Source of the DNA: a virus | Reading direction: 5' to 3' (one strand) | DNA: 64,000 bases | Virus record (IMG/VR): IMGVR_UViG_3300043449_002688 | Span: 32,001-96,000 of that record | In this document: positions 2,170 to 59,921 of the stretch, piece by piece | Numbering within the stretch: position 1 is the first letter of the stretch | Layout of the letters: each line of letters opens with the position of its first letter | Program-made: the position numbers and the translations under genes | The notes under the pieces: model-generated | Seen by the model: the letters and a program-made list of their open reading frames with translations, nothing else | The model's database searches: none | What the model was told of the DNA's origin: nothing

Positions 2170-3925
2170 TAAACCTAAATCAGCTTCAAAGGTAATGATT
2201 CCATCAAGCCAAAAACTTGAGAACGAAGTTTTAACAACATTAAACCATATTGCTGAAATGGTAGGGGTTACATTAGGCCCAGGCGGAAAACAAGTTCTTA
2301 TTGAAAGACCAGAAATTGGAATGAAGCCTATTATGACTAAAGATGGAGTTACAGTTATTAAACATCTTGGTTATGAAGAAGCTACAAAACAGCTTATTCT
2401 TGAGGCAGCTAGAGATGCAGCTATTCGAACAGCAAACGAAGCTGGAGATGGAACAACAACTGCTACTATTCTTTCTAATAGTATTGCTCAAGCAGCAGCT
2501 TCGGTAGTAAAAGCAAACCCAAAACTCAGTCCTCAAAAAATAGTAAGGGAAATGCAAAAACTGGTTCCATATCTTACAAAAAAAATTGAATCTTACAAAA
2601 TTGATGTAGATGGCGAAAATTACGATGACGTTTTACTTAAAGTAGCTACGCTTTCTGCTAACGGAGATTCAGAGCTTGCTTCATCTATCGTCAAAGGTCT
2701 TGATTTAGTTGGAGAAGAAGGAGATATGACAATTGTTGAATCTCAAGGTCCAAGCAAATATGAAATTAATCGCATCAATGGATATACTGTTGAAAGAGGA
2801 TATGAAGAATCTTGTCGTAATTTTGCTAATGGCTTTATCAATGATAAAAGCGGAACAATGGTTGTTCTTGAAAAACCAATTTTTATTTTATACGATGGCA
2901 TTTTAAATGACATGTCTCAAGTTTTTGAACCTCTTACTCGCTTAAACGAACATTTTAATGAAATTAAATCTGATTCTAAAAATGTTGTAATTGTTGCTCA
3001 TGGTTTTTCTGAAATAGTGTTAGGCGATTTGCATACGAATTGGAATCATCCTCAAACTACAATTAAAATGTATCCAATGTTGACGCCAGAAAGAGCTATT
3101 CAGAATTGGAGGACTAATTTCCTTTATGATCTTCAGGCTTATACTGGAACTCCTGTTTTTAACCCAATAGATAAACCTATCGTAGATATGGACCCTCAAA
3201 TTTTGGTAGAAAATAATCGCGTTACTAGAGTAGAAGTATCTCGATACAAATCAATGATTTTTGCAAACGAAGATCAAGAAGCTATTTCAATTAGAGTAGA
3301 GGAATTGCGACTACAAAAACAAAATCCAGAATCAGAATATGAACTAAATGATCTTAATGTTCGTATTGGAAAGCTAACCTCTGGTATCGTTCGCTTAATT
3401 ATTTCTGGCCCATCTGCTGGCGAAACCAGAGAAAAAAGAGATAGAGCAGATGACGCATGGATGGCGATTAAGGGAGCAATTAATTATGGAGCTGTTCCTG
3501 GCGGTGGGTATGTATTAGTACGTTTAGCTGCAGACTTATCAGTAACCTCATCTAAGATGCCGATTGGAACAACAAGATATGCTACTGAAATTTTATCTTT
3601 AGCATTATTAGCGCCAGTAGAAACTCTTTATAGAAATTATGGCTATAATGAAGAAGAAATTGGCCAACAAATAACAGCCATCTTAAATAATGATTCCCAG
3701 GCTTTTGATGTTTCTGAACAAGAATGGGTAGATAAACATAGCCTTTTAGACTCGCTACCAGCGGTAGTAGAAGCAGTAAGGAACAGTATTTCTATTGCAT
3801 CATTGCTTGGCACTGTTGGAGGTATTGTAGCTTTTAAAAGGGACTATGATTCAGATAAACAAGAAGAAAAGCTTGTTAGACAATTTGAAACGAGTATTGG
3901 TGAAAGAGGAAGCTTAAGGGAATAA
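2150..3925 (+). CDS. groEL: Chaperonin GroEL (phage-encoded)
   Basis: TLGPGG, TKDGVTV, AGDGTTTAT, GAVPGGG motifs; GGAGG before ATG 2150. Confidence 0.95.
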   Translation: MGLFQTNKPKSASKVMIPSSQKLENEVLTTLNHIAEMVGVTLGPGGKQVLIERPEIGMKPIMTKDGVTVIKHLGYEEATKQLILEAARDAAIRTANEAGDGTTTATILSNSIAQAAASVVKANPKLSPQKIVREMQKLVPYLTKKIESYKIDVDGENYDDVLLKVATLSANGDSELASSIVKGLDLVGEEGDMTIVESQGPSKYEINRINGYTVERGYEESCRNFANGFINDKSGTMVVLEKPIFILYDGILNDMSQVFEPLTRLNEHFNEIKSDSKNVVIVAHGFSEIVLGDLHTNWNHPQTTIKMYPMLTPERAIQNWRTNFLYDLQAYTGTPVFNPIDKPIVDMDPQILVENNRVTRVEVSRYKSMIFANEDQEAISIRVEELRLQKQNPESEYELNDLNVRIGKLTSGIVRLIISGPSAGETREKRDRADDAWMAIKGAINYGAVPGGGYVLVRLAADLSVTSSKMPIGTTRYATEILSLALLAPVETLYRNYGYNEEEIGQQITAILNNDSQAFDVSEQEWVDKHSLLDSLPAVVEAVRNSISIASLLGTVGGIVAFKRDYDSDKQEEKLVRQFETSIGERGSLRE

Positions 3926-3927
3926 AA

Positions 3928-4188
3928 ATGGCTTGGTTTTCTTATAAGTGCAAAGAACATGGAATTTTTACAAAATCTTTAGAAAAAAGAGAAAAAACTG
4001 TTTTATGCCCTATTTGCAATCAAAATAGTGTAGCAATTATCAAATCTGGTACAATATCAGTAGTAGAAAAGCTTGATAATGGTGCCATGTCTAGATCTGT
4101 TGAAAGATTGCACAATATTGAAGAAATAATGAACGATAGAGCAGACAACCATGATAAAAAAATGGGAATAACTGAAGAGGAAGATTAA
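3928..4188 (+). CDS. FmdB-like zinc-ribbon protein
   Basis: YKCKEHG...CPIC. Confidence 0.6.
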   Translation: MAWFSYKCKEHGIFTKSLEKREKTVLCPICNQNSVAIIKSGTISVVEKLDNGAMSRSVERLHNIEEIMNDRADNHDKKMGITEEED

Positions 4189-5963
4189 TGTCTTCATATA
4201 GACTAAGCTATATTGAAATAGAAGGATTTCGATCTTTCTTTGAAAGGCAAAGAATAGAATTTCCAGAAAAAGGCATGATTTTAATTTCTGGAAAATATAA
4301 AGGAAATCTTGTTTCTTCTGGAGCAGGAAAATCATCTATTGTAGAAGCTATCGCGTTTGCCTTAGATATATGTGATATTCCCGCTACTGAATTAAAATGT
4401 TGGCATTCAAAATCTTTGTACGTTAAATTAGGAATAACAAACGGAATCGATCTTATTGAAATAGAAAGAACCCCTAAGCTTAATTTAATCATAAATGGTA
4501 GCTCATGGTCAGAACTTTCTCTTGGGGCAAAAGAAAAACTTTACTCTTTACTAGGATTAAGCCCAGAAATCCTTTCTCAAGTATCTTATCGTCAACAAAG
4601 AGAAAAAGGCGTTTTTTTAAATTCAACAGACTCTGAGTTAAAAAAATTCTTAACCAAAACCTTAAAATTAGAACAAATTGAATCGGAAGCTGAATCTTTT
4701 AATAAAAAAGCTACTAATCTTAAAAACAATATCGAAATGTTAAAAAGAGATATCGATAATTTGGAAAGCTTTTTAGCTTCTTCTATTGTTACCGACGAAG
4801 AAATTAATCAAGCTAAAATTTCTTTAGATTTATGTATTGAAAAGCTAAACAGCTTGAATGAACCAAACAGCTTGTTATTTCAAAATGAAATTAATCAATT
4901 AAATTTAGATTTATTTGAAGTACAAAAAAATATTATAAATATTTCTAAAGAAATTGAAAAAATAGAAGATTTAAAAAATAAAATTTTGTTGATAAAAAAC
5001 GAAAATTCTCAGCTTAGAGATCAAATCGTGCTTGGCAATTCTGAGCTTAATAAGCTTAAAAGTAATATTTGTCATACTTGCGAAAGACCTTTTAACGGAG
5101 AAAATCATTCTCATATTGCCGCAGCAAAAGAAACTCAAGTTAACGATATGATAGCTAAAATGAGATTTAACTTAGAGTATATCAAAAACGCAGAAAACGT
5201 ACTAATATCTTTAGATTCTCTAAAATTGCAAAAAGATTCTTATCATAAAAAACAAAATGAGCTAAATTTAAAAAAACATGAAATTACCCTAAAATTAGGG
5301 CAAGCTAATGCTCCATTAGATTTAGCGCTTCAGGCAAAAAATTTTGCGCAATCAAATTACAATACCTTGTTATCTAAAAAGCAAGCTTATGATAATATTG
5401 TTTCTAAAATACAGCTTGCAAAAACACAGTTAAATAAAGAAGAAAAAGATTATTTGATTAATTTTTACTGCGGAAAGACTATAGGCAAAAGCGGATTCTT
5501 GGCTTTTATTTTTGAAGAAACTTTGGTTGGCATTCAAAATCGATCAAACGAAATAATAAAACATATTCCTAATATTGAATCTTTTAATCTTGAAATATCT
5601 ACTACAAAAACTACAAAAACTACAAAAACTACAAAAGAAGAAATTAAAAAAACTATCTTAAAAAATGGTTTTGAGGTATCCTTTAAGAGTCTTTCTGGAG
5701 GTCAACAAGCCGCTATGGAGCTTTGTACCGATTTAGCTGTAGCAAAAGAAATAAAACAAAAGGCTGGGGCTGGAATTGGCTGGATTATGTTGGACGAAGC
5801 AATGGACGGATTGGGATCTGTAGAAAAACAAGCAGCTTTAGAAATAATAAAAGACAAATTTGATGGCCAAATTTTTATTATTGATCATTCTACAGAAATT
5901 AAAGAAGCTTTTACTCAAGTTATTGAGGTAGAATACGATGGAAAATTCTCAAAAATTGCTTAG
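4188..5963 (+). CDS. SbcC/Rad50/gp46-like SMC-family ATPase
   Basis: IEGFRSF, SGAGKSS Walker A, coiled coil with CHTC zinc hook, LSGGQ signature, LDEAMDGL Walker B/D-loop, IDH. Confidence 0.92.
   Translation: MSSYRLSYIEIEGFRSFFERQRIEFPEKGMILISGKYKGNLVSSGAGKSSIVEAIAFALDICDIPATELKCWHSKSLYVKLGITNGIDLIEIERTPKLNLIINGSSWSELSLGAKEKLYSLLGLSPEILSQVSYRQQREKGVFLNSTDSELKKFLTKTLKLEQIESEAESFNKKATNLKNNIEMLKRDIDNLESFLASSIVTDEEINQAKISLDLCIEKLNSLNEPNSLLFQNEINQLNLDLFEVQKNIINISKEIEKIEDLKNKILLIKNENSQLRDQIVLGNSELNKLKSNICHTCERPFNGENHSHIAAAKETQVNDMIAKMRFNLEYIKNAENVLISLDSLKLQKDSYHKKQNELNLKKHEITLKLGQANAPLDLALQAKNFAQSNYNTLLSKKQAYDNIVSKIQLAKTQLNKEEKDYLINFYCGKTIGKSGFLAFIFEETLVGIQNRSNEIIKHIPNIESFNLEISTTKTTKTTKTTKEEIKKTILKNGFEVSFKSLSGGQQAAMELCTDLAVAKEIKQKAGAGIGWIMLDEAMDGLGSVEKQAALEIIKDKFDGQIFIIDHSTEIKEAFTQVIEVEYDGKFSKIA
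5601..5636 (+). repeat. Perfect in-frame tandem repeat (ACTACAAAA)x4 encoding (TTK)4
   Basis: Read directly in sequence. Confidence 0.9.
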
Positions 5964-6369
5964 ATTTAGCTTAAAAGATACAGCTCCATCCGAAGCTTTA
6001 GTTGAATATTTCGATAACTTATATTGGAATAGCTCTTTATATATGTGCCTTGTAAATAACAAAGATAATTCTCCTGGATTATATTTAGAAAAAACTAAAA
6101 ATTATGAAAAAATTATTAGAGTTTTTACTGGAGTAGAAGAAGCTTCTATATATGCAGAAATTGTAGCTGAAAAAGAATCATTGCCGCTTGAATCAGTAAA
6201 AAAATGGGAAATTAAATTTTATGATCTTATAGAATATCTTAATAAGGTTAGTAAAAAATATAAAGAAAATAATAAAACTGTAATTAAAGTTGTTGCATCT
6301 GGAGTTTACGAAGAAAAACTAGTAGAATTAGATGTGTTGTGGACTGACATCGAAAAGTTTATTAATTAG
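5938..6369 (+). CDS. Hypothetical protein
   Basis: ORF packed in operon. Confidence 0.7.
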   Translation: MENSQKLLRFSLKDTAPSEALVEYFDNLYWNSSLYMCLVNNKDNSPGLYLEKTKNYEKIIRVFTGVEEASIYAEIVAEKESLPLESVKKWEIKFYDLIEYLNKVSKKYKENNKTVIKVVASGVYEEKLVELDVLWTDIEKFIN

Positions 6370-6378
6370 AGGGTTTTT

Positions 6379-6603
6379 ATGAAAGCTATGGTTTTAAAAA
6401 ATGATTTTTCTAAGCAATTACAAGATACAAATACAAGTATTTTAGATTTAACTAATCAAATTAAGGCTTTAGAAGTTAAGCGTGAACAATTAAAAGGCGC
6501 TGTATATGCTTTAGAAACTTTAATTAACCTTGAATCAGAGTCAGTTACAGAAAATGCAGAAAAAACAGAACCAACTAATTTTGAGCTAAAAAAAAAGAAA
6601 TAA
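6379..6603 (+). CDS. Hypothetical coiled-coil protein
   Basis: GAGG RBS; heptad pattern. Confidence 0.7.
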   Translation: MKAMVLKNDFSKQLQDTNTSILDLTNQIKALEVKREQLKGAVYALETLINLESESVTENAEKTEPTNFELKKKK

Positions 6604-6622
6604 CCATTGAAGGAGATATTTT

Positions 6623-6934
6623 ATGGGAAGAAAAAAAGGAAGCTCTGCACCTAAAACACCATTTGAAAAATTGGTTGCAAAACTTAAAGAAGTCGATCCG
6701 TATTTTGTTGAATCAATCTATTCTTCCAAAGATGAAGATCTTAATTCAAAATTTGGCTCGCTTGCTAAGCAAATGACTGAAATTGAAAATGCCCGTGACA
6801 ATGACGACGATCTTAAGGCTAAAAAAGAAGAACTTAAGGTTTTAAATGAAACTTACACAGAACCGCTTAAAGCAATTAAAATGAAAAGAAAATTTATCTA
6901 TAAAGTTTTAGAAGAAAGAGGAAAAGTTCCATAA
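6623..6934 (+). CDS. Hypothetical coiled-coil protein
   Basis: AAGGAG RBS. Confidence 0.75.
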   Translation: MGRKKGSSAPKTPFEKLVAKLKEVDPYFVESIYSSKDEDLNSKFGSLAKQMTEIENARDNDDDLKAKKEELKVLNETYTEPLKAIKMKRKFIYKVLEERGKVP

Positions 6935-7531: not shown

Positions 7532-8494
7532 ATGGCTTTGTTAGACACCAGAGAAGTTTATAAGCCTTTTAAGTATCCTCAATTTGAGGAAATTCATAGA
7601 AAATTATATACAAGTTTTTGGCATCCAGATGAAATCTCTCTTAGCGAAGATTTAACGGATTTTAACTTTAAACTTACGGATAACGAAAAAGAGATCGTTT
7701 CTCGTATTTTAAAAAACTTTGTTCAATCTGAAATCCATGTAGGATGTTTTTGGGGAGACTTTGTGTCTTCTTGGTTTAAGCATCCAGAAATTCAAAACAC
7801 ATCTAGATACATTTCTGGTAACGAAACTATACATGCAGTTGCTTATGATTTACTAAACGCGACTCTTGGACTAGAAGAATACGATAAGCTTAAACAAGAT
7901 AAAAAGCTTTATGCCAGAATTGAAATGCTTTCTAAGAAAAAAGCTAAAACTAAAGAAGATATATTAAAACAAATATTTACAATGTCAGTAATGGGAGAAG
8001 GGGTTTGTTTATTTTCTTCTTTTATTACACTGTTTGCTTTTACAAAAAAGAACATTTTAAGAGGATTAGGCCAAATTATTAGCTGGAGCACTTTAGATGA
8101 GCAACTTCATTCTGAAGTAGGTGTTATTCTTTTTAATATTTTAAAAAAAGAATATGATTTATTTGATGAAAAAATGAAAGATGAGCTTTATAAGATAGCA
8201 GAAGAAATTGTAGAAATGGAAATGAGCCTTATTGATAGGGTTTTTGAAGATGCAACTACAGATGTTGTTTCAAAAGAAGCTATTAAAAATTATATTCACA
8301 ATAAAGCTAATAAACAGTTAAAAAAAGTTGGATTAAATAAAAAATTTAAAGTAGATAAAGAACTTTTGAAAGAAACAGATTTTTTTGATATTATGATTAA
8401 CGGAGAATCTGTAGTAGACTTTTTTGCCAATAGAGAAACTAATTACTCTAAAGGTCTTTTAATTTTTGATGATAAGATTTGGAGTAACAAATGA
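7532..8494 (+). CDS. nrdB: Class I ribonucleotide reductase beta subunit
   Basis: YKPFKYP, FWHPDE, ETIHAVAY, EGVCLFSSF, DEQLH, DFF...TNYSK. Confidence 0.95.
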   Translation: MALLDTREVYKPFKYPQFEEIHRKLYTSFWHPDEISLSEDLTDFNFKLTDNEKEIVSRILKNFVQSEIHVGCFWGDFVSSWFKHPEIQNTSRYISGNETIHAVAYDLLNATLGLEEYDKLKQDKKLYARIEMLSKKKAKTKEDILKQIFTMSVMGEGVCLFSSFITLFAFTKKNILRGLGQIISWSTLDEQLHSEVGVILFNILKKEYDLFDEKMKDELYKIAEEIVEMEMSLIDRVFEDATTDVVSKEAIKNYIHNKANKQLKKVGLNKKFKVDKELLKETDFFDIMINGESVVDFFANRETNYSKGLLIFDDKIWSNK

Positions 8495-13781: not shown

Positions 13782-14001
13782 AATTGAACTTATTGAAAAA
13801 ATCAAAAATGATGACGATTTTATTAATTTGTTAAAATATAACAACAGTTTAAAAAACCTATTATCTGAACATCCCACAGGAGTATCTGATTCAGTTATAT
13901 GCAAAGCGCTTTGTATATCTCAAGCCGAGCTTGACGAAGCCCTTAGATCTGCTATAATGAAATTCAAAGAAAGTGTTGGGATTACCGATGACGAAATTTA
14001 A
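13774..14001 (+). CDS. Small HTH (sigma region 4-like) protein
   Basis: GVSDSVICKALCISQAELDEALRSAIMKFK. Confidence 0.5.
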   Translation: MNKIELIEKIKNDDDFINLLKYNNSLKNLLSEHPTGVSDSVICKALCISQAELDEALRSAIMKFKESVGITDDEI

Positions 14002-16090
14002 ACAGCTAATCAATCCTCATTCTCATTCAGATTACAGTTTAGACGGTGCAGCAACAGTTTCTCAAATAGTTGAAAGAAATAAACAACTTGGCGCTTCATA
14101 TGTAACCTTAACAGAACATGGAAACATGAATTCTGCTATGGAGTTATATAAGACAGCAAAGCAAAAAGGCATTACCCCCATTCTTGGGATGGAAGCTTAT
14201 CTAATCAACCCTTGGCACAATGAATATGTAGAAATTTATCGAAAAGCTATTTCTTCTGGAGTATTGCAAATAAGAGAAAAAAACCCAGAAGCTATTGAAA
14301 ATGCCATTCAAAAAAAGGCAATGAATCATTATTTACATATTACTGTCCATTTTAAGGACGCTTGGGCTTATCAATATTTTTGTAAAATTTCCCCAAAAAT
14401 GTGGTCTCGTTCTATTAAAAAATACAGCGAAGAAAAACCATTGATTACAATGGAAGAATTAGAAGCCGCCGCAGGCCATATTACTATTGGCTCTAGCTGT
14501 ATGAAGGGTCCAGTTCAATACTTTATGTTGCCATCAAAAGATGGACTGATCCCTCCTCAGCCAGAAAAATCAAAATACATGTATGAATGGCTGAAAAGAA
14601 TTGCAGGAAAAGAAAGTTTTTTCGTAGAAGTTTTTCCTCATCAAGTTACACATGAATGGCAAAAACCAGAAAAAGATTATTCTGGTCGAATCATTAAAGA
14701 AGGCTATTTTAAAGCCCACGAATGCACCTGTCATGCTCCAAACGGAGATTACCAAAAACCTCTTAATGAGTGGGTTATACATTTAGCAGAATCAAACAAG
14801 GATAAGGCCATTATTTCTTTAGATTCTCATTATGCGACAAAAAATCAAAAAGTTATCCAAGATGCAAGGCTTGGAAATGGCGATGAAAATTGGAGATTTT
14901 ATAATTATTATCACATAATGTCCACAGAAGAAGCCGCTGAAGTTTTAAGAAAAACGCTTGGCATTAATGATAGAAAAATTGAAGAATGGGTTGAAAACTC
15001 ATATGATTGGGCTTCAAATTTTGATTCTTTTAAGCTAGAAACTTCTGAAACACGATGGATTTTAGCTGGAGATTCAGACCGATTTATGAATAGGTTAAAA
15101 TCAACTATTGATAAATGGGGAAGGATGGATTGGTCAAATCAAGAAATGGTTGACCGACTTAAACATGAAATTCAAGTTTTAGCTCATAATAAAAAGCTTA
15201 ACCTTTTGGCTTACTTTGAAACGATAGAAGATGTTGCTAATTTTTGCAGAGAAAATGGCGTATTAATGAACGTTCGAGGCTCTGCAGGCGGGTCACTATT
15301 GCTTTATTTAATTGGGGTTAGCGGCATTAACCCAATGAAACATGACCTTTCTTTTGGACGATTTTTGACTGAAGGAAGAATTGAAGCAAATACTCTTCCT
15401 GATGTTGATATGGACGTTTCAGATCAAGAAAAAGTTATTGAATACTTAAAAAGTAAGTATGGAGATGGCATTTGCAGGCTCTCAACTGATTTATTGCTTC
15501 GAATTAAATCTTCAATTAAAGATGCAGAAAGATCTATATTAGGTAAGGTCAGAAAAGAAACTGAAGATCTTTGTAAAAAACTGCCCTCTACTCCACAAGG
15601 AACCGAAGATATTGCATTTATTTTTGGGTTTAATGACAAAAATACTGGCGAACATATTCCTGGCATTTTTGATAAAAATTTTGCATTACAAAAATATGCA
15701 GAGGATAATGCTGAGATTTGGAATGTAGTAAAAGAAATGCTTGGAATCCAACGCAATAAAAGTTCGCATGCTTGTTACGTTGGCGAAACCCTAATCTTAA
15801 TTTACGAAGACAACCAAGTAAAAGAAAAAAGGATAGATGCATGCGACGGAAAAACAGTATTTACAGGCCAAGGCTCGATAGCCAAAGCAAAATTAATAAA
15901 CCAGGGGAAGAAAAAAGTAAAAAAATACACACTAGAGAACGGAAAAACTTTAGTTGTAACTCCAGATCATTTGATGTTAACGAAAAAAGGCTGGATGACA
16001 ATAGAGCAAGTTTTTCAAGAGGGAGAGGGCCTAATATCACTATCGAAGACTGTAGACGGGCTGCTGAAGAAAGAAAAGGAAAGTGTTTAA
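13988..16090 (+). CDS. dnaE: DNA polymerase III alpha, N-terminal half fused to split-intein N fragment
   Basis: PHP HSHSDYS, TEHG, DSHY; RGSAGGS; PDVDMD catalytic motif; ends NKSSHA|CYVGETLI...TPDH...stop. Confidence 0.95.
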   Translation: MTKFKQLINPHSHSDYSLDGAATVSQIVERNKQLGASYVTLTEHGNMNSAMELYKTAKQKGITPILGMEAYLINPWHNEYVEIYRKAISSGVLQIREKNPEAIENAIQKKAMNHYLHITVHFKDAWAYQYFCKISPKMWSRSIKKYSEEKPLITMEELEAAAGHITIGSSCMKGPVQYFMLPSKDGLIPPQPEKSKYMYEWLKRIAGKESFFVEVFPHQVTHEWQKPEKDYSGRIIKEGYFKAHECTCHAPNGDYQKPLNEWVIHLAESNKDKAIISLDSHYATKNQKVIQDARLGNGDENWRFYNYYHIMSTEEAAEVLRKTLGINDRKIEEWVENSYDWASNFDSFKLETSETRWILAGDSDRFMNRLKSTIDKWGRMDWSNQEMVDRLKHEIQVLAHNKKLNLLAYFETIEDVANFCRENGVLMNVRGSAGGSLLLYLIGVSGINPMKHDLSFGRFLTEGRIEANTLPDVDMDVSDQEKVIEYLKSKYGDGICRLSTDLLLRIKSSIKDAERSILGKVRKETEDLCKKLPSTPQGTEDIAFIFGFNDKNTGEHIPGIFDKNFALQKYAEDNAEIWNVVKEMLGIQRNKSSHACYVGETLILIYEDNQVKEKRIDACDGKTVFTGQGSIAKAKLINQGKKKVKKYTLENGKTLVVTPDHLMLTKKGWMTIEQVFQEGEGLISLSKTVDGLLKKEKESV
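15773..16087 (+). mobile_element. Split intein N fragment (IntN, 105 aa)
   Basis: Block A CYVGETLI; block B LVVTPDHLMLTKKGW; stop codon with no blocks F/G. Confidence 0.9.
15787..15798 (+). promoter_or_regulatory. Late-promoter-like motif embedded in IntN coding sequence
   Basis: AACCCTAATCTT matches the motif upstream of structural genes; about 42 nt before ATG 15841. Confidence 0.55.
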
Positions 16091-16920
16091 GCGAGGAATA
16101 TAAAGGATTAAAATACCCACTTAAATGGCAATGTGATCATGGGCATTTATGGATATCAAATTTTCATAATATAAAATATTCAAAAACTTGGTGTCCATCT
16201 TGTTTTAAAAATAAAACTCGCCATAGGTTAACTTTTAGTTTTGAAAAAGTTAAAACAATTTGTTTATCAAAAGGATTTGAAATCATTTCTAAGGAATATA
16301 AAAATAGCTTAGAACAAATTGAAGTCAAACATATACCTTGCCAAACATCTTTTAAAACTACCTTTCATAATATTACGCATAAAAAAGTTTGTCCAGAATG
16401 CTCTTTAAGAAAAAGAGCCGATATAATAGAAGCTGAAAATTTAGTTAAAGTAAAAGAAGGAAAAATAATAGGTTTTGCTAAAAAATCTAAAAATAATTCA
16501 ACATGGGAATGCGCTAAAGGCCATCAATGGAGAACCACTTGGAGTAATATTAAAAAAGGTTCTTGGTGTCCTTTTTGTGCAGGTAAAAAAAGTATTTCTT
16601 CAATACATAAACAAGCTGTTGCTAAATTATATCAACATAAAAGATGGGATGCTGAAAAAGGATATCAGACTACAATCGAATTAGAAGATATCGTAAATGC
16701 ATTAAAGTCTAAATGTGTTTATTGTGACAATAATGCTACCAATGTAGATCGTAAAAACTCAAATTTAGGGCATTTAAAAGAAAATTGTGTTCCATGTTGT
16801 GGAAGATGTAATAGAGTCAAAAATAATTGTATTTCTTATGAAACCATGCTAAAAATAGGCAAGATATTAAAAGAAGAGGAACAAAATGAAGATAATAAAA
16901 GCGGAGGAGCTGGGTTATGA
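15841..16920 (+). CDS. Free-standing homing endonuclease-like protein (3 Zn-ribbon repeats plus C-terminal HNH-type nuclease)
   Basis: WQCDHGHLW..WCPSC, KHIPC..VCPEC, WECAKGHQW..WCPFC; CVYC..VDRKNSNLGHLKENCVPCCGRCNRVK; AAGGA 7 nt before ATG 15841 (start uncertain). Confidence 0.8.
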   Translation: MRRKNSIYRPRLDSQSKINKPGEEKSKKIHTRERKNFSCNSRSFDVNEKRLDDNRASFSRGRGPNITIEDCRRAAEERKGKCLSEEYKGLKYPLKWQCDHGHLWISNFHNIKYSKTWCPSCFKNKTRHRLTFSFEKVKTICLSKGFEIISKEYKNSLEQIEVKHIPCQTSFKTTFHNITHKKVCPECSLRKRADIIEAENLVKVKEGKIIGFAKKSKNNSTWECAKGHQWRTTWSNIKKGSWCPFCAGKKSISSIHKQAVAKLYQHKRWDAEKGYQTTIELEDIVNALKSKCVYCDNNATNVDRKNSNLGHLKENCVPCCGRCNRVKNNCISYETMLKIGKILKEEEQNEDNKSGGAGL

Positions 16921-16993
16921 GCAAGTTTATGACTTATCAGTTTTTCACGAAGATCACAGTTTTGTTCTTGAAACTGGCAATGTAACGCACAAT
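16886..16993 (+). mobile_element. Split intein C fragment (IntC, 36 aa)
   Basis: Block F VYDLSV..HSF; block G THN followed by Cys+1. Confidence 0.92.
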
Positions 16994-18841
16994 TGCGGAT
17001 TTATTATTTGCGATAAGCCAGTAACTGACTATATGCCTGTTATTAAAATAAATAACGAATGGGTCACAGGCTTTTCTCCAAAGTCAGTTGAAGCAGCAGG
17101 CGGCGTTAAATTTGACTTATTGGGCCTTAATACATTAAGAGACATTCAAATTTGCCTGGATTCTATTAGAAAACGAACAAATGAGAATCTAGATCCATGG
17201 AATTTGCCTTATGACGAAAAAGTTTGGGATATTTTTATAAAAGGCGATGTTGATGGAGTTTTTCAATTTGATACACCAACAATTCGTCCATATGTCATAA
17301 AAACAAAGCCAAAGACCATTGATGAACTTGCTGCGCTAACGGCTCTTGGCAGACCTGGAACGCTAGATGCCCCTGCAGGAGACTCTACGGCAAGGACATT
17401 AGCAGAGCTTTATGTTGACAGAGCAAACGGCGAACCTGTTCAGTATTTGCATTCTGATCTTGAACCTATTTTAAAGCAAACTTATGGAATTCAATTGTTT
17501 CAAGAACAAACAATTAAAATTTTTACATCAATAGGCGGAATGTCTGATGCAGAAGCCGATGAGGTTCGTAGAGGTATAGGCAAAAAGAATAAAGCAGTTC
17601 TTGATATAGCTGCAGAAAAACTTAAGATTGCCTGCTTAAAAAGAGGATGGACCGAAGAACAAGTTGCCGTATTAATTCAACAAATTGAAGCATCTGCTAA
17701 CTATTCTTTTAACAAATCACATGCAGTTTCATATGCTTATGTAGCTTACGCTTGCATGTATTTAAAAACAAAATACAAGCTTGATTGGTGGAAAGCCATT
17801 CTTTCTAATGCTACAAAAGATGAACTTGCTACTAAATTTTGGAAAAACGTACAAGAATTTACCACACTTCCAGATATTAATATTTCTACAGATGATTATG
17901 AAATAGTTGAAAACAAAATCGTAGCGCCTTTTTCAATCCTTAGCGGTGGGGTTGGTGAAAAAGCTTATGAAAGTTTAATGAAAAATAAACCTTATAAAAA
18001 TCTTGAGCACTTTGTTTCTTGTCATTTTCCTACAAAAGAAGAAGAAGATCGCAAGAAAGCCTTGAAAAAGAATGGTATTGATTTAGAAAAAAATGTAAGA
18101 AAATCAGCAGTAACTGCAGCTATAGCTAGAAAATTAATTGCTGGGGGCGTTTTAGATTCATTATTCGAGCCAAATATGTTAATTGAAGAAAAATTGTTTC
18201 AATTTGAACAAGTTAGAGGTCAAATTAAAGGCAAAAAGCCAGAAAAAGTGCCAGATGAATATGTTGGAGTATCTACTTTAGGTAAATACTTATTAAGAAA
18301 AGAGCTTATTCAAATCCATTCTGACGATTTAAGAGAAATAATGCTCCCTAGCCGACATGGTAAAAAACTACCTTGCAGAATTGGAAATGAATATGAGTCT
18401 TGGTTTTCTCAAGATGGGGTAATTGTACTTGATGGAAATCAAATACAATGGTTTAGAAAATACTTTGATTTAGGCGTTTCTATAGAAACTTTAGTTCAAA
18501 AATTTGACAGTCTACTTCAAAATAAAGACCCTTATCAAATTTCTGTTCCTAGTCAAATAGGACACAATGAAAGGTATTTCCAGGCAATAGGTTATGTTGT
18601 AGGCGAAAAAGCTTTTCCTTACAAAAATAAAACCAAACAAGCAACTAGATTAGTTATTGATTTTAATGGATATTTTACTGAAGAAATGATGTGGCCAGAG
18701 CAAGACGAAGACCAAGCGGAAATGGGCTTTAAAAGCCTTCCCGTATTGGCAATATTTGGATTAAATAAAAAAGGAATTTATTTAAAAAAGGTTTTAAAAC
18801 TCTTGAGCGAAACTGACTTAGAAAAGTACAACATGACTTGA
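16886..18841 (+). CDS. dnaE: Split-intein C fragment fused to DNA polymerase III alpha, C-terminal half
   Basis: GAGGA RBS; MKIIKAEELGYEQVYDLSV...FVLETGNVTHN|CGFII; then KFDLLGL, GVFQF, RPG, QEQ, YSFNKSHA. Confidence 0.95.
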   Translation: MKIIKAEELGYEQVYDLSVFHEDHSFVLETGNVTHNCGFIICDKPVTDYMPVIKINNEWVTGFSPKSVEAAGGVKFDLLGLNTLRDIQICLDSIRKRTNENLDPWNLPYDEKVWDIFIKGDVDGVFQFDTPTIRPYVIKTKPKTIDELAALTALGRPGTLDAPAGDSTARTLAELYVDRANGEPVQYLHSDLEPILKQTYGIQLFQEQTIKIFTSIGGMSDAEADEVRRGIGKKNKAVLDIAAEKLKIACLKRGWTEEQVAVLIQQIEASANYSFNKSHAVSYAYVAYACMYLKTKYKLDWWKAILSNATKDELATKFWKNVQEFTTLPDINISTDDYEIVENKIVAPFSILSGGVGEKAYESLMKNKPYKNLEHFVSCHFPTKEEEDRKKALKKNGIDLEKNVRKSAVTAAIARKLIAGGVLDSLFEPNMLIEEKLFQFEQVRGQIKGKKPEKVPDEYVGVSTLGKYLLRKELIQIHSDDLREIMLPSRHGKKLPCRIGNEYESWFSQDGVIVLDGNQIQWFRKYFDLGVSIETLVQKFDSLLQNKDPYQISVPSQIGHNERYFQAIGYVVGEKAFPYKNKTKQATRLVIDFNGYFTEEMMWPEQDEDQAEMGFKSLPVLAIFGLNKKGIYLKKVLKLLSETDLEKYNMT

Positions 18842-50065: not shown

Positions 50066-50320
50066 ATGAAACAACTGTTTTTAACCATAACCGCATTAAT
50101 TGTTTTTTATCTTTGGTCTTTAAATTCTATAATGAAAACAGCTACTATGACTATTAATTCTCAAAATTACACCATGATAGAAATTGCAAAAAATTCTTAT
50201 TCAGCAGGATGCTTAACAGAAAGGTTTCCGCAAGAAAGCAGAGAAAATCAGGTTATTCGTTGTAAAGTTTTTGCTAAACATTATTCAGATCAAATTAAAC
50301 AAATTATGGGAATGGAATAA
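50066..50320 (+). CDS. Hypothetical membrane-anchored protein
   Basis: GAGG RBS; N-terminal TM. Confidence 0.6.
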   Translation: MKQLFLTITALIVFYLWSLNSIMKTATMTINSQNYTMIEIAKNSYSAGCLTERFPQESRENQVIRCKVFAKHYSDQIKQIMGME

Positions 50321-50321
50321 T

Positions 50322-50834
50322 ATGACTTTTAATGAATTCGCTCAACAATATCGCCCAGCGATGGTTAAGTTTGCAAACTCTTATAATCTTTCACAGTTTG
50401 AAAAAGATGAAGTTATTCAAAAAGGGCTAATTCATTTAATGTTTAATTGGCAAAAAGTTGATCTTAATAAAAATTTAAATGCATTATGCAAAACAGTAGT
50501 CATGCATCATGTAAAAATGGAAACAAGAGGTAGTCGGTCAAAATATTTTGATTCCCAGATTTATATTGACCAAGAATATGGCGAAGATGAATTAACTTTT
50601 GAAATCCCAACTGAAGCAACTCAAGAAGAAGACGTTGAATCTCAGCAGGTAAACAAAAACCTTAATAAGGCTTTAGGAAAAATGTCAAAAGACTACCCTG
50701 AGCATGTTACTGTTATTAGGCAAACTCTTGAAGGAAAACCTTTAGTTGATATTGCAAAAGACTTAAAAATGGAATATGATAAGACTAAAGATCTTTTAAG
50801 ATATGGCATAGTTGTTTTAAAAAAACAAAAATAA
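50322..50834 (+). CDS. ECF-type sigma-70 family factor
   Basis: Region 2-like EKDEVIQKGLI; region 4 HTH EGKPLVDIAKDLKMEYDKTKDLLRYG. Confidence 0.7.
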   Translation: MTFNEFAQQYRPAMVKFANSYNLSQFEKDEVIQKGLIHLMFNWQKVDLNKNLNALCKTVVMHHVKMETRGSRSKYFDSQIYIDQEYGEDELTFEIPTEATQEEDVESQQVNKNLNKALGKMSKDYPEHVTVIRQTLEGKPLVDIAKDLKMEYDKTKDLLRYGIVVLKKQK

Positions 50835-59900: not shown

Positions 59901-59910
59901 TATTTCAATA

Positions 59911-59921
59911 AGATTAGGCTA
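59911..59921 (-). promoter_or_regulatory. Late-promoter-like motif
   Basis: TAGCCTAATCT upstream of ATG 59900. Confidence 0.55.

Follow-up and report, generated by a model that had tools for sequence, protein, structure and literature searches.

Layout of the dnaE locus

The window, a stretch of 64,000 nucleotides, comes from a phage whose whole genome comprises 155 kb at 34% GC. Its dnaE is a "fractured gene", in which each of two ORFs contains one half of a split intein, with an endonuclease ORF lying between them. The two adjacent ORFs of the host gene lie on the same (plus) strand. The first (13973-16090) encodes the DnaE N-extein (13973-15772), with PHP and Pol III alpha NTPase domains recognised by Pfam (PHP E=1.4e-27; DNA_pol3_alpha E=4.2e-32) and with the end ...KSSHA, followed by IntN, the N-terminal intein half (15773-16090, 105 aa plus stop, Cys1 at 15773, block B TPDH). 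The second (16886-18841) starts at ATG 16886 with IntC, the C-terminal half (16886-16993, 36 aa, ...VTHN), and continues into the C-extein (16994-18841), which holds the end of the NTPase domain, the finger (Pfam DNA_pol3_finger E=9.3e-36) and the HhH region.

The joined exteins (600 + 615 aa) are colinear from end to end with the uninterrupted DnaE proteins P0049 and P0050 (1207 and 1211 aa; 83-85% identity). The SSHA|CGFI junction is gap-free in the intein-less alleles, for which L097 provides the DNA, and this sets the boundaries of IntN and IntC. Intein signature residues are present in both halves (CYVGETLIL...TPDH in IntN; ...VTHN in IntC, then Cys+1 of CGFIICD) and are common to four loci. 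A phmmer search gave the gp41-1 intein (E=3.6e-4) and DnaE inteins as the solved chains closest to IntN. The two polypeptides are presumably joined by protein trans-splicing into the polymerase.

Between the intein halves lies the homing endonuclease ORF (15841-16920, plus strand), which comprises 359 codons and a stop and is read in the -1 frame with respect to IntN. This frame (frame 1) is uninterrupted between 15760 and the terminating codon at 16918-16920, and the ORF overlaps the ATG of IntC at 16886, and thus the start of that ORF, by 35 nt, as a sequence-only reading of this DNA had also reported. All other features which that reading had described were found in their places as well. 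The ORF begins with a leader of 65 codons (15841-16035) overprinted on IntN codons 23-88. Three helix-plus-treble-clef Zn-ribbon modules of the DUF4379/DUF723 type follow (16036-16599), presumably the DNA-binding part, and then a nuclease domain of the HNH or endonuclease VII-like (His-Me finger) kind (16600-16917).

Similarity searches place the first recognisable domain of the protein at about position 16036: in tblastn, matches to endonucleases of T5-like phages begin at residue 1 of a query that starts there, and in almost all of 150 profile hits the homologous module begins at residue 63-67. The Zn-ribbon part matches Pfam DUF4379 in three stretches (E=1.6e-8) and the PHROG endonuclease families 681 and 559 (E about 2e-20), and its modules are modelled with a pLDDT of 71-89. 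Annotated homing endonucleases of T5-like phages have the same N-terminal helix-plus-Zn-ribbon modules, at 25-30% identity. For the nuclease domain, matches were obtained with PHROG 1035 (endonuclease VII, E=3.5e-9) and PHROG 3118 (HNH, E=2e-3). The Pfam HNH and Endonuclease_7 models did not match the protein even at E up to 10; DUF4379 and DUF723 were the only Pfam matches. A Foldseek search with the predicted structure returned as its top and sole significant match the HNH enzyme PacI (3ldy_A, E=1.9e-4, prob 1.00, TM 0.57 on target), at 16% sequence identity. As in PacI and other Zn-stabilised HNH nucleases, the model has the beta-beta-alpha-metal fold with two CxxC pairs; the usual first histidine of HNH nucleases is replaced by D-R, here and in all homologues. 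The motif residues (CxxC, DR, N, H, CxxCN) are unchanged in six endonuclease homologues (invariant: C292, C295, D303, R304, N308, H311, N315, C320, C323, N324), and zinc ligands and nuclease motif are retained among homologues that are 47-53% identical. The modelled domain is thus of the HNH type, with conserved zinc-binding and catalytic residues.

Comparison of two related loci, L094 and L096, bears on the mobility of the unit. They differ at 32 positions in 184 nt of the N-extein (~17%), and then at only 2 in the next 1443 nt, a stretch made up of 108 extein nucleotides together with IntN, the endonuclease, IntC and C-extein sequence. As read from this alignment, the mosaic shows that the unit was recently transferred as a whole, along with a co-conversion tract. 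If the unit is mobile, the nuclease must be made.

A probable start codon inside the intein

The sequence-only reading had pointed out that the endonuclease ORF has no ATG, GTG or TTG near its first domain. This is borne out by the in-frame candidates, which are only TTG 15772, ATG 15841 and ATG 16846. ATG 15841 is preceded at a distance of 7 nt by the Shine-Dalgarno-like AAGGA (15829-15833), and 249 nt separate it from the last base of the IntN stop codon (16088-16090), in agreement with the two distances given earlier (7 nt and about 250 nt). The anti-SD duplex energy at this ATG is -5.4 kcal/mol, against a median of -5.75 for ORF starts of the genome; 7% of random positions reach the same value.

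The same layout is found in four colinear loci (the window, L001, L002 and L094). Their IntN sequences have diverged to 52-60% identity, with identical codons at 27-58% of the conserved residues. The ATG is conserved in all four, where it is formed by xxA+TGC at IntN codons 23-24; the joint chance of a wobble A at this site in four loci is 0.015. The ribosome binding site in front of it is more variable: apart from the window, only L002 has a good one (-5.8), that of L001 is weak (-3.3), and L094 has none (+0.3). L001 has an extra ATG (6001) just before the first zinc knuckle, and the protein sequences of the called products P0003 and P0005 begin at the position aligned with it, the start that gene callers preferred.

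From the ATG to the domain (67 codons), the -1 frame is free of stops in the window and in the three relatives. Resampling of synonymous codons would lead one to expect 5.8, 1.8, 4.0 and 4.1 stops, respectively (P = 4e-4, 0.13, 0.007 and 0.0024), and the +1 frame contains 12, 4, 7 and 10. The open run of 110 codons over IntN is the longest in the -1 frame of the window's genes, which is interrupted by one stop per 9 codons on average; the runner-up measures 60. Downstream of the ATG, 0 of 49 codons before AA, AG or GA end in T, whereas T is the last base of 36 of 141 codons in harmless contexts (P = 9e-6). Upstream of the ATG, 4 of 20 codons in the risky contexts end in T (P = 0.006 against the 0 of 49), and -1-frame stops lie one codon (L001) and eight codons (L002) ahead of it. 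These codon counts mark a footprint of stop avoidance that is specific to the stretch starting at the conserved ATG.

The codon composition carries a related signal. With 13% of its codons ending in T, IntN of the window ranks near the bottom of 3477 sliding windows of the genome (mean 43%, sd 7%), and the minimum of 11% starts 30 nt further on within the same stretch; the share is 41% in the non-overlapped part of the endonuclease and 50% in IntC. In 4 of 4 loci it is lower in IntN than in the endonuclease part. However, T-ending codons are also depleted in the harmless contexts of the window (28% vs 57%), so part of the composition signal has another cause. A permutation of codons confined to IntN deprives the open frame of its significance (P = 0.10-0.31); this procedure removes the very signal under test.

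The 65-residue leader has no family match. It is predicted to be disordered, with a pLDDT of 26-42 for residues 1-49 and 52 for residues 51-60, and in the model it lies outside the folded protein. Two polymorphisms distinguish L094 from L095 and L096 in the overlap, both silent in IntN and both altering the leader. The leader would thus be unstructured and free in sequence apart from staying stop-free, and the folded endonuclease would begin at about 16036.

Other ways of expressing the ORF, or of not expressing it, have to be weighed against this start. The strongest SD-like sequence of the region, AGGGAGAGGG at 16020-16029 (-8.5 kcal/mol, a value that 0.7% of random positions attain), precedes ATC 16036, and translation might begin on this near-cognate codon at the folded domain, which would make the upstream frame irrelevant. 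A codon that can serve as a start under table 11 occupies the aligned position in all four loci (TTG, CTG and CTG in the relatives), with SD energies of -4.9 at the TTG of L001 and -5.4 at the CTG of L094. However, the stop-free frame and the 0 of 49 risky codons from the conserved ATG onwards are left unexplained by such a start, AGGGAGAGGG is not conserved in the relatives, and L002 lacks an SD there (-0.9). L094 uses GTC, giving CTG, though GTA, GTG or GTT would provide a canonical start, and L002 uses AGC instead of AGT; these choices speak against selection for a good start codon at this place. We thus regard it as an improbable main start; ATC 16036 may be a minor second one in the window.

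With the endonuclease in the -1 frame of IntN, programmed -1 frameshifting or transcriptional slippage on A runs could in principle yield a DnaE-N-IntN-endonuclease fusion. The window offers A6 and A7 runs (15911-15916 and 15919-15925, including A AAA AAA) as well as GTT TTT CAA at 16010, which the sequence-only reading had put forward as an alternative. The latter proposal does not hold: the site is not a canonical heptamer, the relatives read GCG TAC GAA (L001), GTG TTC GAA and GTA TTT CAA, and a shift there would leave 170 nt of open -1 frame upstream without explanation. An alignment of the four loci shows no conserved slippery heptamer at any position, the open frame begins at the conserved ATG and not at a slip site, and a fusion would put the 294-residue domain on some 700 residues of polymerase fragment and consume IntN. 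A fusion of this kind is very unlikely. We think just as little of the idea that the gene is a decaying, unexpressed remnant which has lost its start. It would fit the missing canonical start near the domain and the failure of the Pfam HNH models, but has to contend with the invariant zinc ligands and nuclease motif, the confidently predicted fold with its match to PacI, the recent transfer indicated by the L094/L096 mosaic, and the coexistence of intein-less alleles. The conserved ATG and the stop-free -1 frame that begins there in four diverged loci agree with the original proposal of an endonuclease start within IntN, and ATG 15841 is, on this comparative evidence, probably the main start of the endonuclease.

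The late-gene motif and the proposed mode of expression

A copy of a motif that the sequence-only reading had likened to one before the structural genes lies upstream of this start. The likeness is confirmed by the genome, in which AAnCCTAATCTT is a real, strand-specific signal associated with virion and lysis genes. Its 9-mer core CCTAATCTT occurs 23 times (about one copy per strand is expected), 20 of them on the minus strand, and 18 copies occupy intergenic sites at a distance of 9-82 nt upstream of minus-strand genes, among them those for a virion protein and an endolysin. The 12-mer AACCCTAATCTT is present four times in the window. Three of these copies are intergenic and upstream of minus-strand genes; the fourth (15787-15798, plus strand) is written in the intein codons for E-T-L-I-L (GAA ACC CTA ATC TTA), with 42 nt between it and ATG 15841, the spacing noted before. 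A candidate reader of CCTAATCTT is encoded by a sigma-factor-like gene at 50271-50834 (plus strand), whose product matches PHROG 1740 (RNA polymerase sigma factor, E=1.1e-9) and, weakly and below the family cut-off, Sigma70_r2 (20 bits).

Whether the intein copy functions is harder to judge. The overprinted start may be real and the motif a coincidence or relic, in which case the endonuclease would be translated only from read-through dnaE mRNA, without a promoter of its own. About one sense-strand copy of the 9-mer is expected per genome by chance, and another copy, in a coding region at genome position 32625, looks incidental. Scored against the consensus of the window's phage, the motif is kept in only one or two of the three relatives (L001 11/12, L094 10/12, L002 8/12, where it has been lost), and the match in L001 could reflect residual common ancestry (codon identity 43%). 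The 5 copies of CCTAAYCT in 32 kb of the L001 phage do not differ significantly from expectation (1.5; up to 6 in shuffles). A stem of 7-8 bp (15765-15771 / 15838-15844, CGCAUGC/GCAUGCG), which would hide the AUG in read-through RNA, forms part of the minimum-energy folds predicted for the window and L002; these folds are no stabler than those of shuffled sequence (z = +0.4 for the window, +0.8 for L002), and the stem is absent in L001. Seven free-standing endonuclease genes of T4 lack a promoter of their own (PMC2988022), and on this view the present gene would resemble the promoter-less seg/mob cassettes of that phage. Against a coincidence speaks that the copy matches the full AAnCCTAATCTT consensus at all 11 informative positions, on the strand of the endonuclease and at a typical distance; the chance of a copy 9-82 nt upstream of ATG 15841 is ~5e-4, from composition and for the core alone. 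It is written in three consecutive rare codons (ACC 9.8%, CTA 8.3%, ATC 10%) where stop avoidance imposes nothing, a codon choice with a chance of ~4e-4 given the amino acids. In addition, no other copy occurs in the plus-strand replication block of 26 kb, and the syntenic 19-kb block of an intein-less relative contains none. Taking these points together, we give the intein copy close to an even chance of being a working promoter with late timing, while a motif without function above a real start is a serious contender, if somewhat below even.

Our overall account, an overprinted endonuclease start combined with a late promoter inside the intein of a fractured dnaE, appears reasonably likely; the anatomy of the locus, the conserved ATG, the selected open frame and the mobility of the unit are its firm parts. 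The endonuclease gene would have no intergenic leader, its ribosome binding site, ATG 15841 and first 65 codons being overprinted on IntN in the -1 frame. Late transcription could start within the intein, roughly at 15800-15806, from the motif in the codons of intein block A, and such a transcript would bear the endonuclease ribosome binding site at its 5' end, without the dnaE frame upstream. Ribosomes engaged on DnaE-N and IntN in read-through mRNA of the early or middle period would cross the internal start and could keep endonuclease levels low. Because the expression signals are intein codons, neither endonuclease nor intein could be deleted or replaced without damage to the other. That promoter, ribosome binding site, start and leader are all held in splicing-domain codons as an indivisible unit, with a sigma-dependent late start and suppression by ribosomes, is a doubtful proposition when taken in its entirety. 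In this reading the endonuclease might also repress itself as I-TevI does, since only 14 nt lie between the putative promoter and the left half of the homing site, which is retained. If true, regulation would be achieved here by dual-use coding sequence and nothing else.

Comparison with known systems

The general layout is already known, and the overprinted start together with the late motif in the intein is a new twist. Fractured genes, in which a free-standing homing endonuclease gene lies between the halves of a split intein, were described in a set with three DnaE loci and the gp41-1 intein among its members (Dassa 2009, PMC2677866). The present locus resembles them in that an essential replication gene is divided into two adjacent IntN and IntC ORFs with the endonuclease gene between, and gp41-1 is the solved chain most similar to IntN. 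The 3' end of the endonuclease gene overlaps the IntC start by 6-69 bp in those loci; the corresponding overlap measures 35 nt in the window and 4 nt in its relatives. Their endonucleases are GIY-YIG or Vsr-like, with the HNH type only predicted, whereas the one described here is HNH-like. In the Dassa loci, the endonuclease gene is preceded by an untranslated leader between the genes, with hairpins and the T4-type late-promoter element TATAAATA. The present gene lacks such a leader: its ribosome binding site, start and first 65 codons overlie the IntN splicing domain, and the promoter-like motif is AAnCCTAATCTT and lies in intein codons.

Control by a late promoter and a hairpin over the ribosome binding site is known in T-even phages for I-TevI, I-TevII, I-TevIII, segB and mobE of Aeh1, which lies in a split nrdA (PMC2988022). 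The endonuclease gene of our locus likewise sits within an early/middle unit of a gene of nucleotide or DNA metabolism, and a putative late-type promoter directly upstream could give a short late transcript that frees the ribosome binding site. In contrast to T-even phages, the motif is not the T4 late promoter TATAAATA, and early repression would come from ribosomes reading the overlapping IntN frame instead of from a hairpin. Like the present endonuclease gene, mobE divides its host gene into two ORFs, but it does so without an intein.

Actinobacteriophage inteins with an endonuclease VII-like homing endonuclease in frame 3 have been read as a free-standing endonuclease gene invading an intein (bioRxiv 10.1101/2025.01.02.630785); start sites and promoters are not discussed there. 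The similarity consists in an out-of-frame ORF of the endonuclease VII/HNH superfamily on the same strand of an intein, which is easily missed by annotation. Assignment to this class was considered and rejected, as a split intein with an ORF over 250 nt of its splicing half does not fit. In the actinobacteriophage type the intein is contiguous and the ORF lies outside the splicing domain, whereas here the intein is split by the stop at 16088-16090 and ~200-250 nt of the splicing domain are dual-coding.

The interrupted dnaE locus and its relatives

The source virus record comprises 154,801 bp (34% GC, ~96% complete), and the window represents its bases 32001-96000. Three overlapping plus-strand ORFs were found at 13973-18841. 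The first (13973-16090, frame 2) encodes the N-terminal part of DnaE with PHP and Pol III alpha domains and carries at its C-terminal end IntN, the N-terminal half of a split intein (105 residues starting with the Cys at 15773, HA|CYVGETLIL...TPDH...), to which the gp41-1 and DnaE inteins are the most similar among solved chains. The second is the endonuclease ORF (15772/15841-16920), which lies in frame 1, i.e. -1 with respect to IntN, and encodes DUF4379/DUF723 zinc-ribbon modules and a C-terminal nuclease domain. The third (16886-18841, frame 2) opens with the C-terminal intein half, the 36-residue IntC (...VTHN|CGF), and continues into the remainder of DnaE. When joined, the exteins (the DnaE parts) align end to end with the uninterrupted DnaE of close relatives (83-85% identity, gapless at SSHA|CGFI); the DNA of one syntenic intein-less relative is L097. 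Since the intein halves flank the endonuclease ORF and the exteins are colinear with uninterrupted DnaE, the locus is, judged from its sequence, a fractured dnaE as described by Dassa et al. 2009 (PMC2677866), with an HNH-type endonuclease. No paralogues of the endonuclease or the intein were found elsewhere in the genome.

All coordinates of the sequence-only reading proved correct when the motif, the ATG, the AAGGA and the IntC overlap were rechecked on the sequence. The ATG at 15841 is preceded by AAGGA at 15829-15833, 7 nt upstream, and by a copy of the late-gene motif discussed below at 15787-15798, 42 nt ahead; the endonuclease ORF overlaps IntC by 35 nt; and there is no canonical start near the first recognisable domain, the only in-frame candidates being TTG 15772, ATG 15841 and ATG 16846. 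The 3' end of the ORF differs among the loci: in two relatives (L001, 6765-6768; L002, 1202-1205) it overlaps the IntC start by the 4 nt ATGA, while the window (16886-16920) has lost the ATGA stop and the ORF runs 35 nt into IntC, giving an acidic, glycine-rich tail EEEQNEDNKSGGAGL.

The comparison drew on three more loci that carry this element: L001 (with its extensions L092 and L093; from a 173-kb contig, 58% GC), L002 (a 5-kb contig) and L094, to which the variants L095 and L096 belong. From the first intein codon on into the endonuclease, all three run colinear with the window and show no indels, at an IntN identity of 52-60%. A DNA search of the phage collection and a protein pattern scan of viral contigs using a single protein gave no match. 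Alignment-based scans of viral and metagenome contigs yielded ~90 loci, all of them distant Zn-ribbon repeat proteins and none with the intein, and a profile search of 1.8 billion proteins was dominated by multi-repeat Zn-ribbon proteins and brought in no family members other than P0002, P0005 and P0006. A second intein is found in the DnaE C-exteins of two relatives at or near an FNKSH site that is free of an intein in the window DnaE; it is contiguous in L002 (~2100-2500, FN|CIGGDQLIQ...VAHN|CSHS) and begins ...FNKS IDGDTIL in L001 (~7900-8012).

The nuclease domain of the endonuclease matches PHROG endonuclease VII (E=3.5e-9) and PHROG HNH (E=2e-3), and the HNH enzyme PacI is the top and only significant Foldseek match of the AlphaFold model (E=1.9e-4). 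The homologous part begins at ~16036: in tblastn, a query starting there is matched by T5-like phage endonucleases from its residue 1 onward, and almost all of the best 150 profile matches start at profile positions 63-67. Catalytic and zinc residues are invariant across the endonuclease homologues.

The reading frame that overlaps IntN

A shared ATG, an open frame, the avoidance of T at wobble positions, the codon composition and an apparently unconstrained leader make it probable that translation of the -1 frame starts at or near the conserved ATG, and the proposal of the sequence-only reading that the endonuclease ORF begins inside IntN is supported. The ATG is present in 4/4 loci, where the wobble A of IntN codon 23 and a conserved Cys codon, TGC, together form it (GCA TGC, GCA TGC, GAA TGC and CAA TGC); the joint chance of that wobble A in the four loci is 0.015. 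Over the 67 codons from the ATG to the domain start, the -1 frame is free of stops in all four loci, against 5.8, 1.8, 4.0 and 4.1 expected stops (P = 4e-4, 0.13, 0.007 and 0.0024 for the window, L001, L002 and L094) when synonymous codons are resampled according to the codon usage of the respective genome. Over these codons, the +1 frame contains 12, 4, 7 and 10 stops. Upstream of the ATG, stops interrupt the -1 frame of L001 (one) and L002 (three), matching the chance expectation.

A control that is independent of background usage exploits the fact that a -1 stop requires a wobble T before a codon beginning with AA, AG or GA. Pooled over the four loci, none of the 49 such risky positions downstream of the ATG has a T, compared to 36 of 141 harmless contexts in the same stretch (P = 9e-6) and to 4 of 20 risky positions upstream of the ATG (P = 0.006). 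T-ending codons make up 13% of the window IntN, which is among the lowest values of 3477 sliding genome windows (mean 43%, sd 7%); the genome minimum of 11% begins 30 nt further along the same IntN stretch, and the values elsewhere in the unit are ordinary (41% in the non-overlapped part of the endonuclease, 50% in IntC). As T-wobble is also depleted in harmless contexts (28% vs 57% in the window), part of the composition signal has another cause. A permutation of synonymous codons within IntN alone (P = 0.10-0.31) was judged uninformative because it preserves the T-wobble depletion, which is the signal itself, and the context test was used instead. The longest open run of the -1 frame in the window lies over IntN (110 codons; the next has 60). 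The leader, i.e. the first 65 endonuclease codons (15841-16035), has no family match, its residues 1-49 are predicted to be disordered (pLDDT <50), and the two polymorphisms within the overlap change residues of the leader but none of IntN; the leader sequence thus looks unconstrained.

The Shine-Dalgarno (SD) sequence at ATG 15841 is typical (-5.4 kcal/mol vs a genome median of -5.75; -5.8 in L002), but the conserved ATG of L001 has a weak one and that of L094 none. A further ATG (6001) is found in L001 ahead of the first zinc knuckle, and this aligned position is also where the called products P0003 and P0005 start. Within the IntN codons of the window, in the stretch 16020-16036 (+), the SD-like AGGGAGAGGG (-8.5 kcal/mol), one of the strongest elements of this kind in the genome, lies 6 nt ahead of ATC 16036, the exact first codon of the folded part of the endonuclease. 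A shorter second isoform from this ATC is possible, and AGGGAGAGGG may act as a second start or a ribosome pause site. We ascribe the inconsistent starts set by gene callers (products of 359, 348 and 255-256 aa) to the dual-coding overlap.

Other ways of producing the endonuclease fit the four loci less well. Initiation at the Cys1 codon (TTG 15772 in the window, ATG 466 in L094) would have to proceed without an SD sequence (-0.4 and -2.4) and in a frame that is closed in L001 and L002, and termination-reinitiation at the IntN stop would find no start codon near 16090 in the window. The alternative put forward in the sequence-only reading, a programmed -1 frameshift from IntN, was abandoned: no slippery site is conserved across the four loci, and such a mechanism would need neither the conserved ATG nor the open frame upstream of the slip. 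Still another reading takes the locus as one contiguous intein with two sequencing frameshifts or assembly errors; however, four independent assemblies share the frames, and this reading also fails on the frame of IntC relative to IntN, which differs between L001 and the window.

The late-gene motif and its copy in the intein

The 9-mer CCTAATCTT has 23 copies in the genome vs ~1 expected per strand. Twenty of them are on the minus strand, and 18 are intergenic, 9-82 nt upstream of minus-strand genes; genes downstream of motif copies include a virion structural protein and an endolysin. AA is preferred 2-3 nt ahead of the core. The motif is oriented like the genes it precedes, as an intergenic copy on the plus strand lies ahead of a plus-strand ORF. 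With at most one mismatch, AAYCCTAATCTT is matched 22 times in reverse and 3 times in forward orientation; the reversed control gives 6 and 3. The only literature matches to the 9-mer were unrelated primers. It is reasonable to regard the motif as a putative late promoter, or at least as a candidate late-gene control element. Candidate readers are a 187-aa sigma-like protein (50271-50834, +; PHROG 1740 RNA polymerase sigma factor, E=1e-9; weak Sigma70_r2) and the product of a second weak Sigma70_r2 match outside the window (genome 29949-30092, -).

Three copies lie just 9 nt before a start codon (window 59910-59921, -, genome 91910; genome 135319, -, and 139257, -), two of them without an SD sequence; if the motif is a promoter, the mRNAs from these copies would be leaderless or nearly so. 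The copy AGGCCTAATCTT at 622-633 (+; genome 32622) is antisense within a minus-strand gene (3-1088) that runs off the window start, has no close downstream plus-strand ORF and is probably incidental.

The intein copy matches at all informative positions, is on the endonuclease strand at a typical distance to the ATG, and has no second copy beside it in the 26 kb of the plus-strand replication block; the syntenic block of the intein-less relative (19 kb) is free of copies. The chance of the core landing 9-82 nt upstream of ATG 15841 is ~5e-4 by base composition, and that of the codons ACC CTA ATC TTR given the amino acids ETLIL is ~4e-4. Three rare codons in the copy occupy positions free of the stop-avoidance constraint. 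Against a function, ~1 sense-strand copy per genome is expected by chance, and another coding-region copy looks incidental. Of the late promoter that the sequence-only reading proposed in the intein DNA, the exact copy of the virion/lysis-gene motif stands, but conservation is mixed, with 11/12 positions kept in L001, 10/12 in L094 and 8/12 in L002; the agreement in L001 could reflect shared ancestry. CCTAAYCT occurs 5 times vs 1.5 expected over 32 kb of the L001 phage, and although all four non-intein copies are on the minus strand, this enrichment is not significant. A hairpin that would sequester the ribosome binding site and AUG in read-through RNA is present in the minimum-energy fold, yet it is no more stable than in shuffled sequences, which also weakens the case. 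Sigma-70-type promoters and intrinsic terminators showed no excess over shuffles in 15400-17200. We thus hold a promoter function of the intein copy to be possible, with somewhat less than even confidence.

Mobility and comparison with known systems

L094 and its variant L096 show 32 differences (29 synonymous) in 184 nt of the N-extein (L094 175-358) and only 2 in the next 1443 nt (L094 359-1801), which comprise the last 108 nt of the N-extein, IntN, the endonuclease, IntC and the start of the C-extein. This sharp mosaic looks like what recent homing is expected to leave behind, the co-conversion tract extending over at least 108 nt. In L001, T-ending codons account for 29% of the endonuclease gene (5947-6764) vs 10% of the polymerase extein (3857-5653), so the gene is as yet unadapted to its GC-rich host and the element seems to have been acquired recently from a genome richer in AT. 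The mosaic, the codon mismatch and the existence of intein-less alleles suggest that the endonuclease is produced and functional. The invariance of catalytic and zinc residues and the transfer mosaic make it unlikely that the gene is dead.

Split inteins with a free-standing endonuclease gene between their halves are regarded as evolutionary intermediates toward both split and bifunctional inteins. Here, intein and endonuclease share ~200 nt of dual-coding DNA, and the fate of the nuclease gene is thus physically tied to the splicing element. If the embedded motif is a working promoter, conserved intein block-A codons can encode a phage-specific late signal, and the timing logic of T4 I-TevI and mobE would have been reinvented independently in an unrelated phage group. 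For practical purposes, the locus offers a compact split intein at a new dnaE site (HA|CG) and an HNH enzyme that is a candidate rare cutter and whose natural target is defined, and the wobble-T test is a simple means to detect translated overlapping frames.

The general layout is that of the fractured genes of Dassa et al., which include three DnaE loci, have 3' overlaps of 6-69 bp and carry T4-type late-promoter hairpins in untranslated leaders (PMC2677866). Late-promoter control is established for endonuclease genes within earlier units, namely I-TevI to III, segB and Aeh1 mobE (PMC2988022). Particular to the present locus are the HNH-type enzyme in a fractured gene, the 65-codon leader overprinted on the splicing domain, with a selection footprint that can be quantified and is conserved across four diverged loci, and the fact that codons of intein block A spell out a copy of a late motif of non-T4 type.
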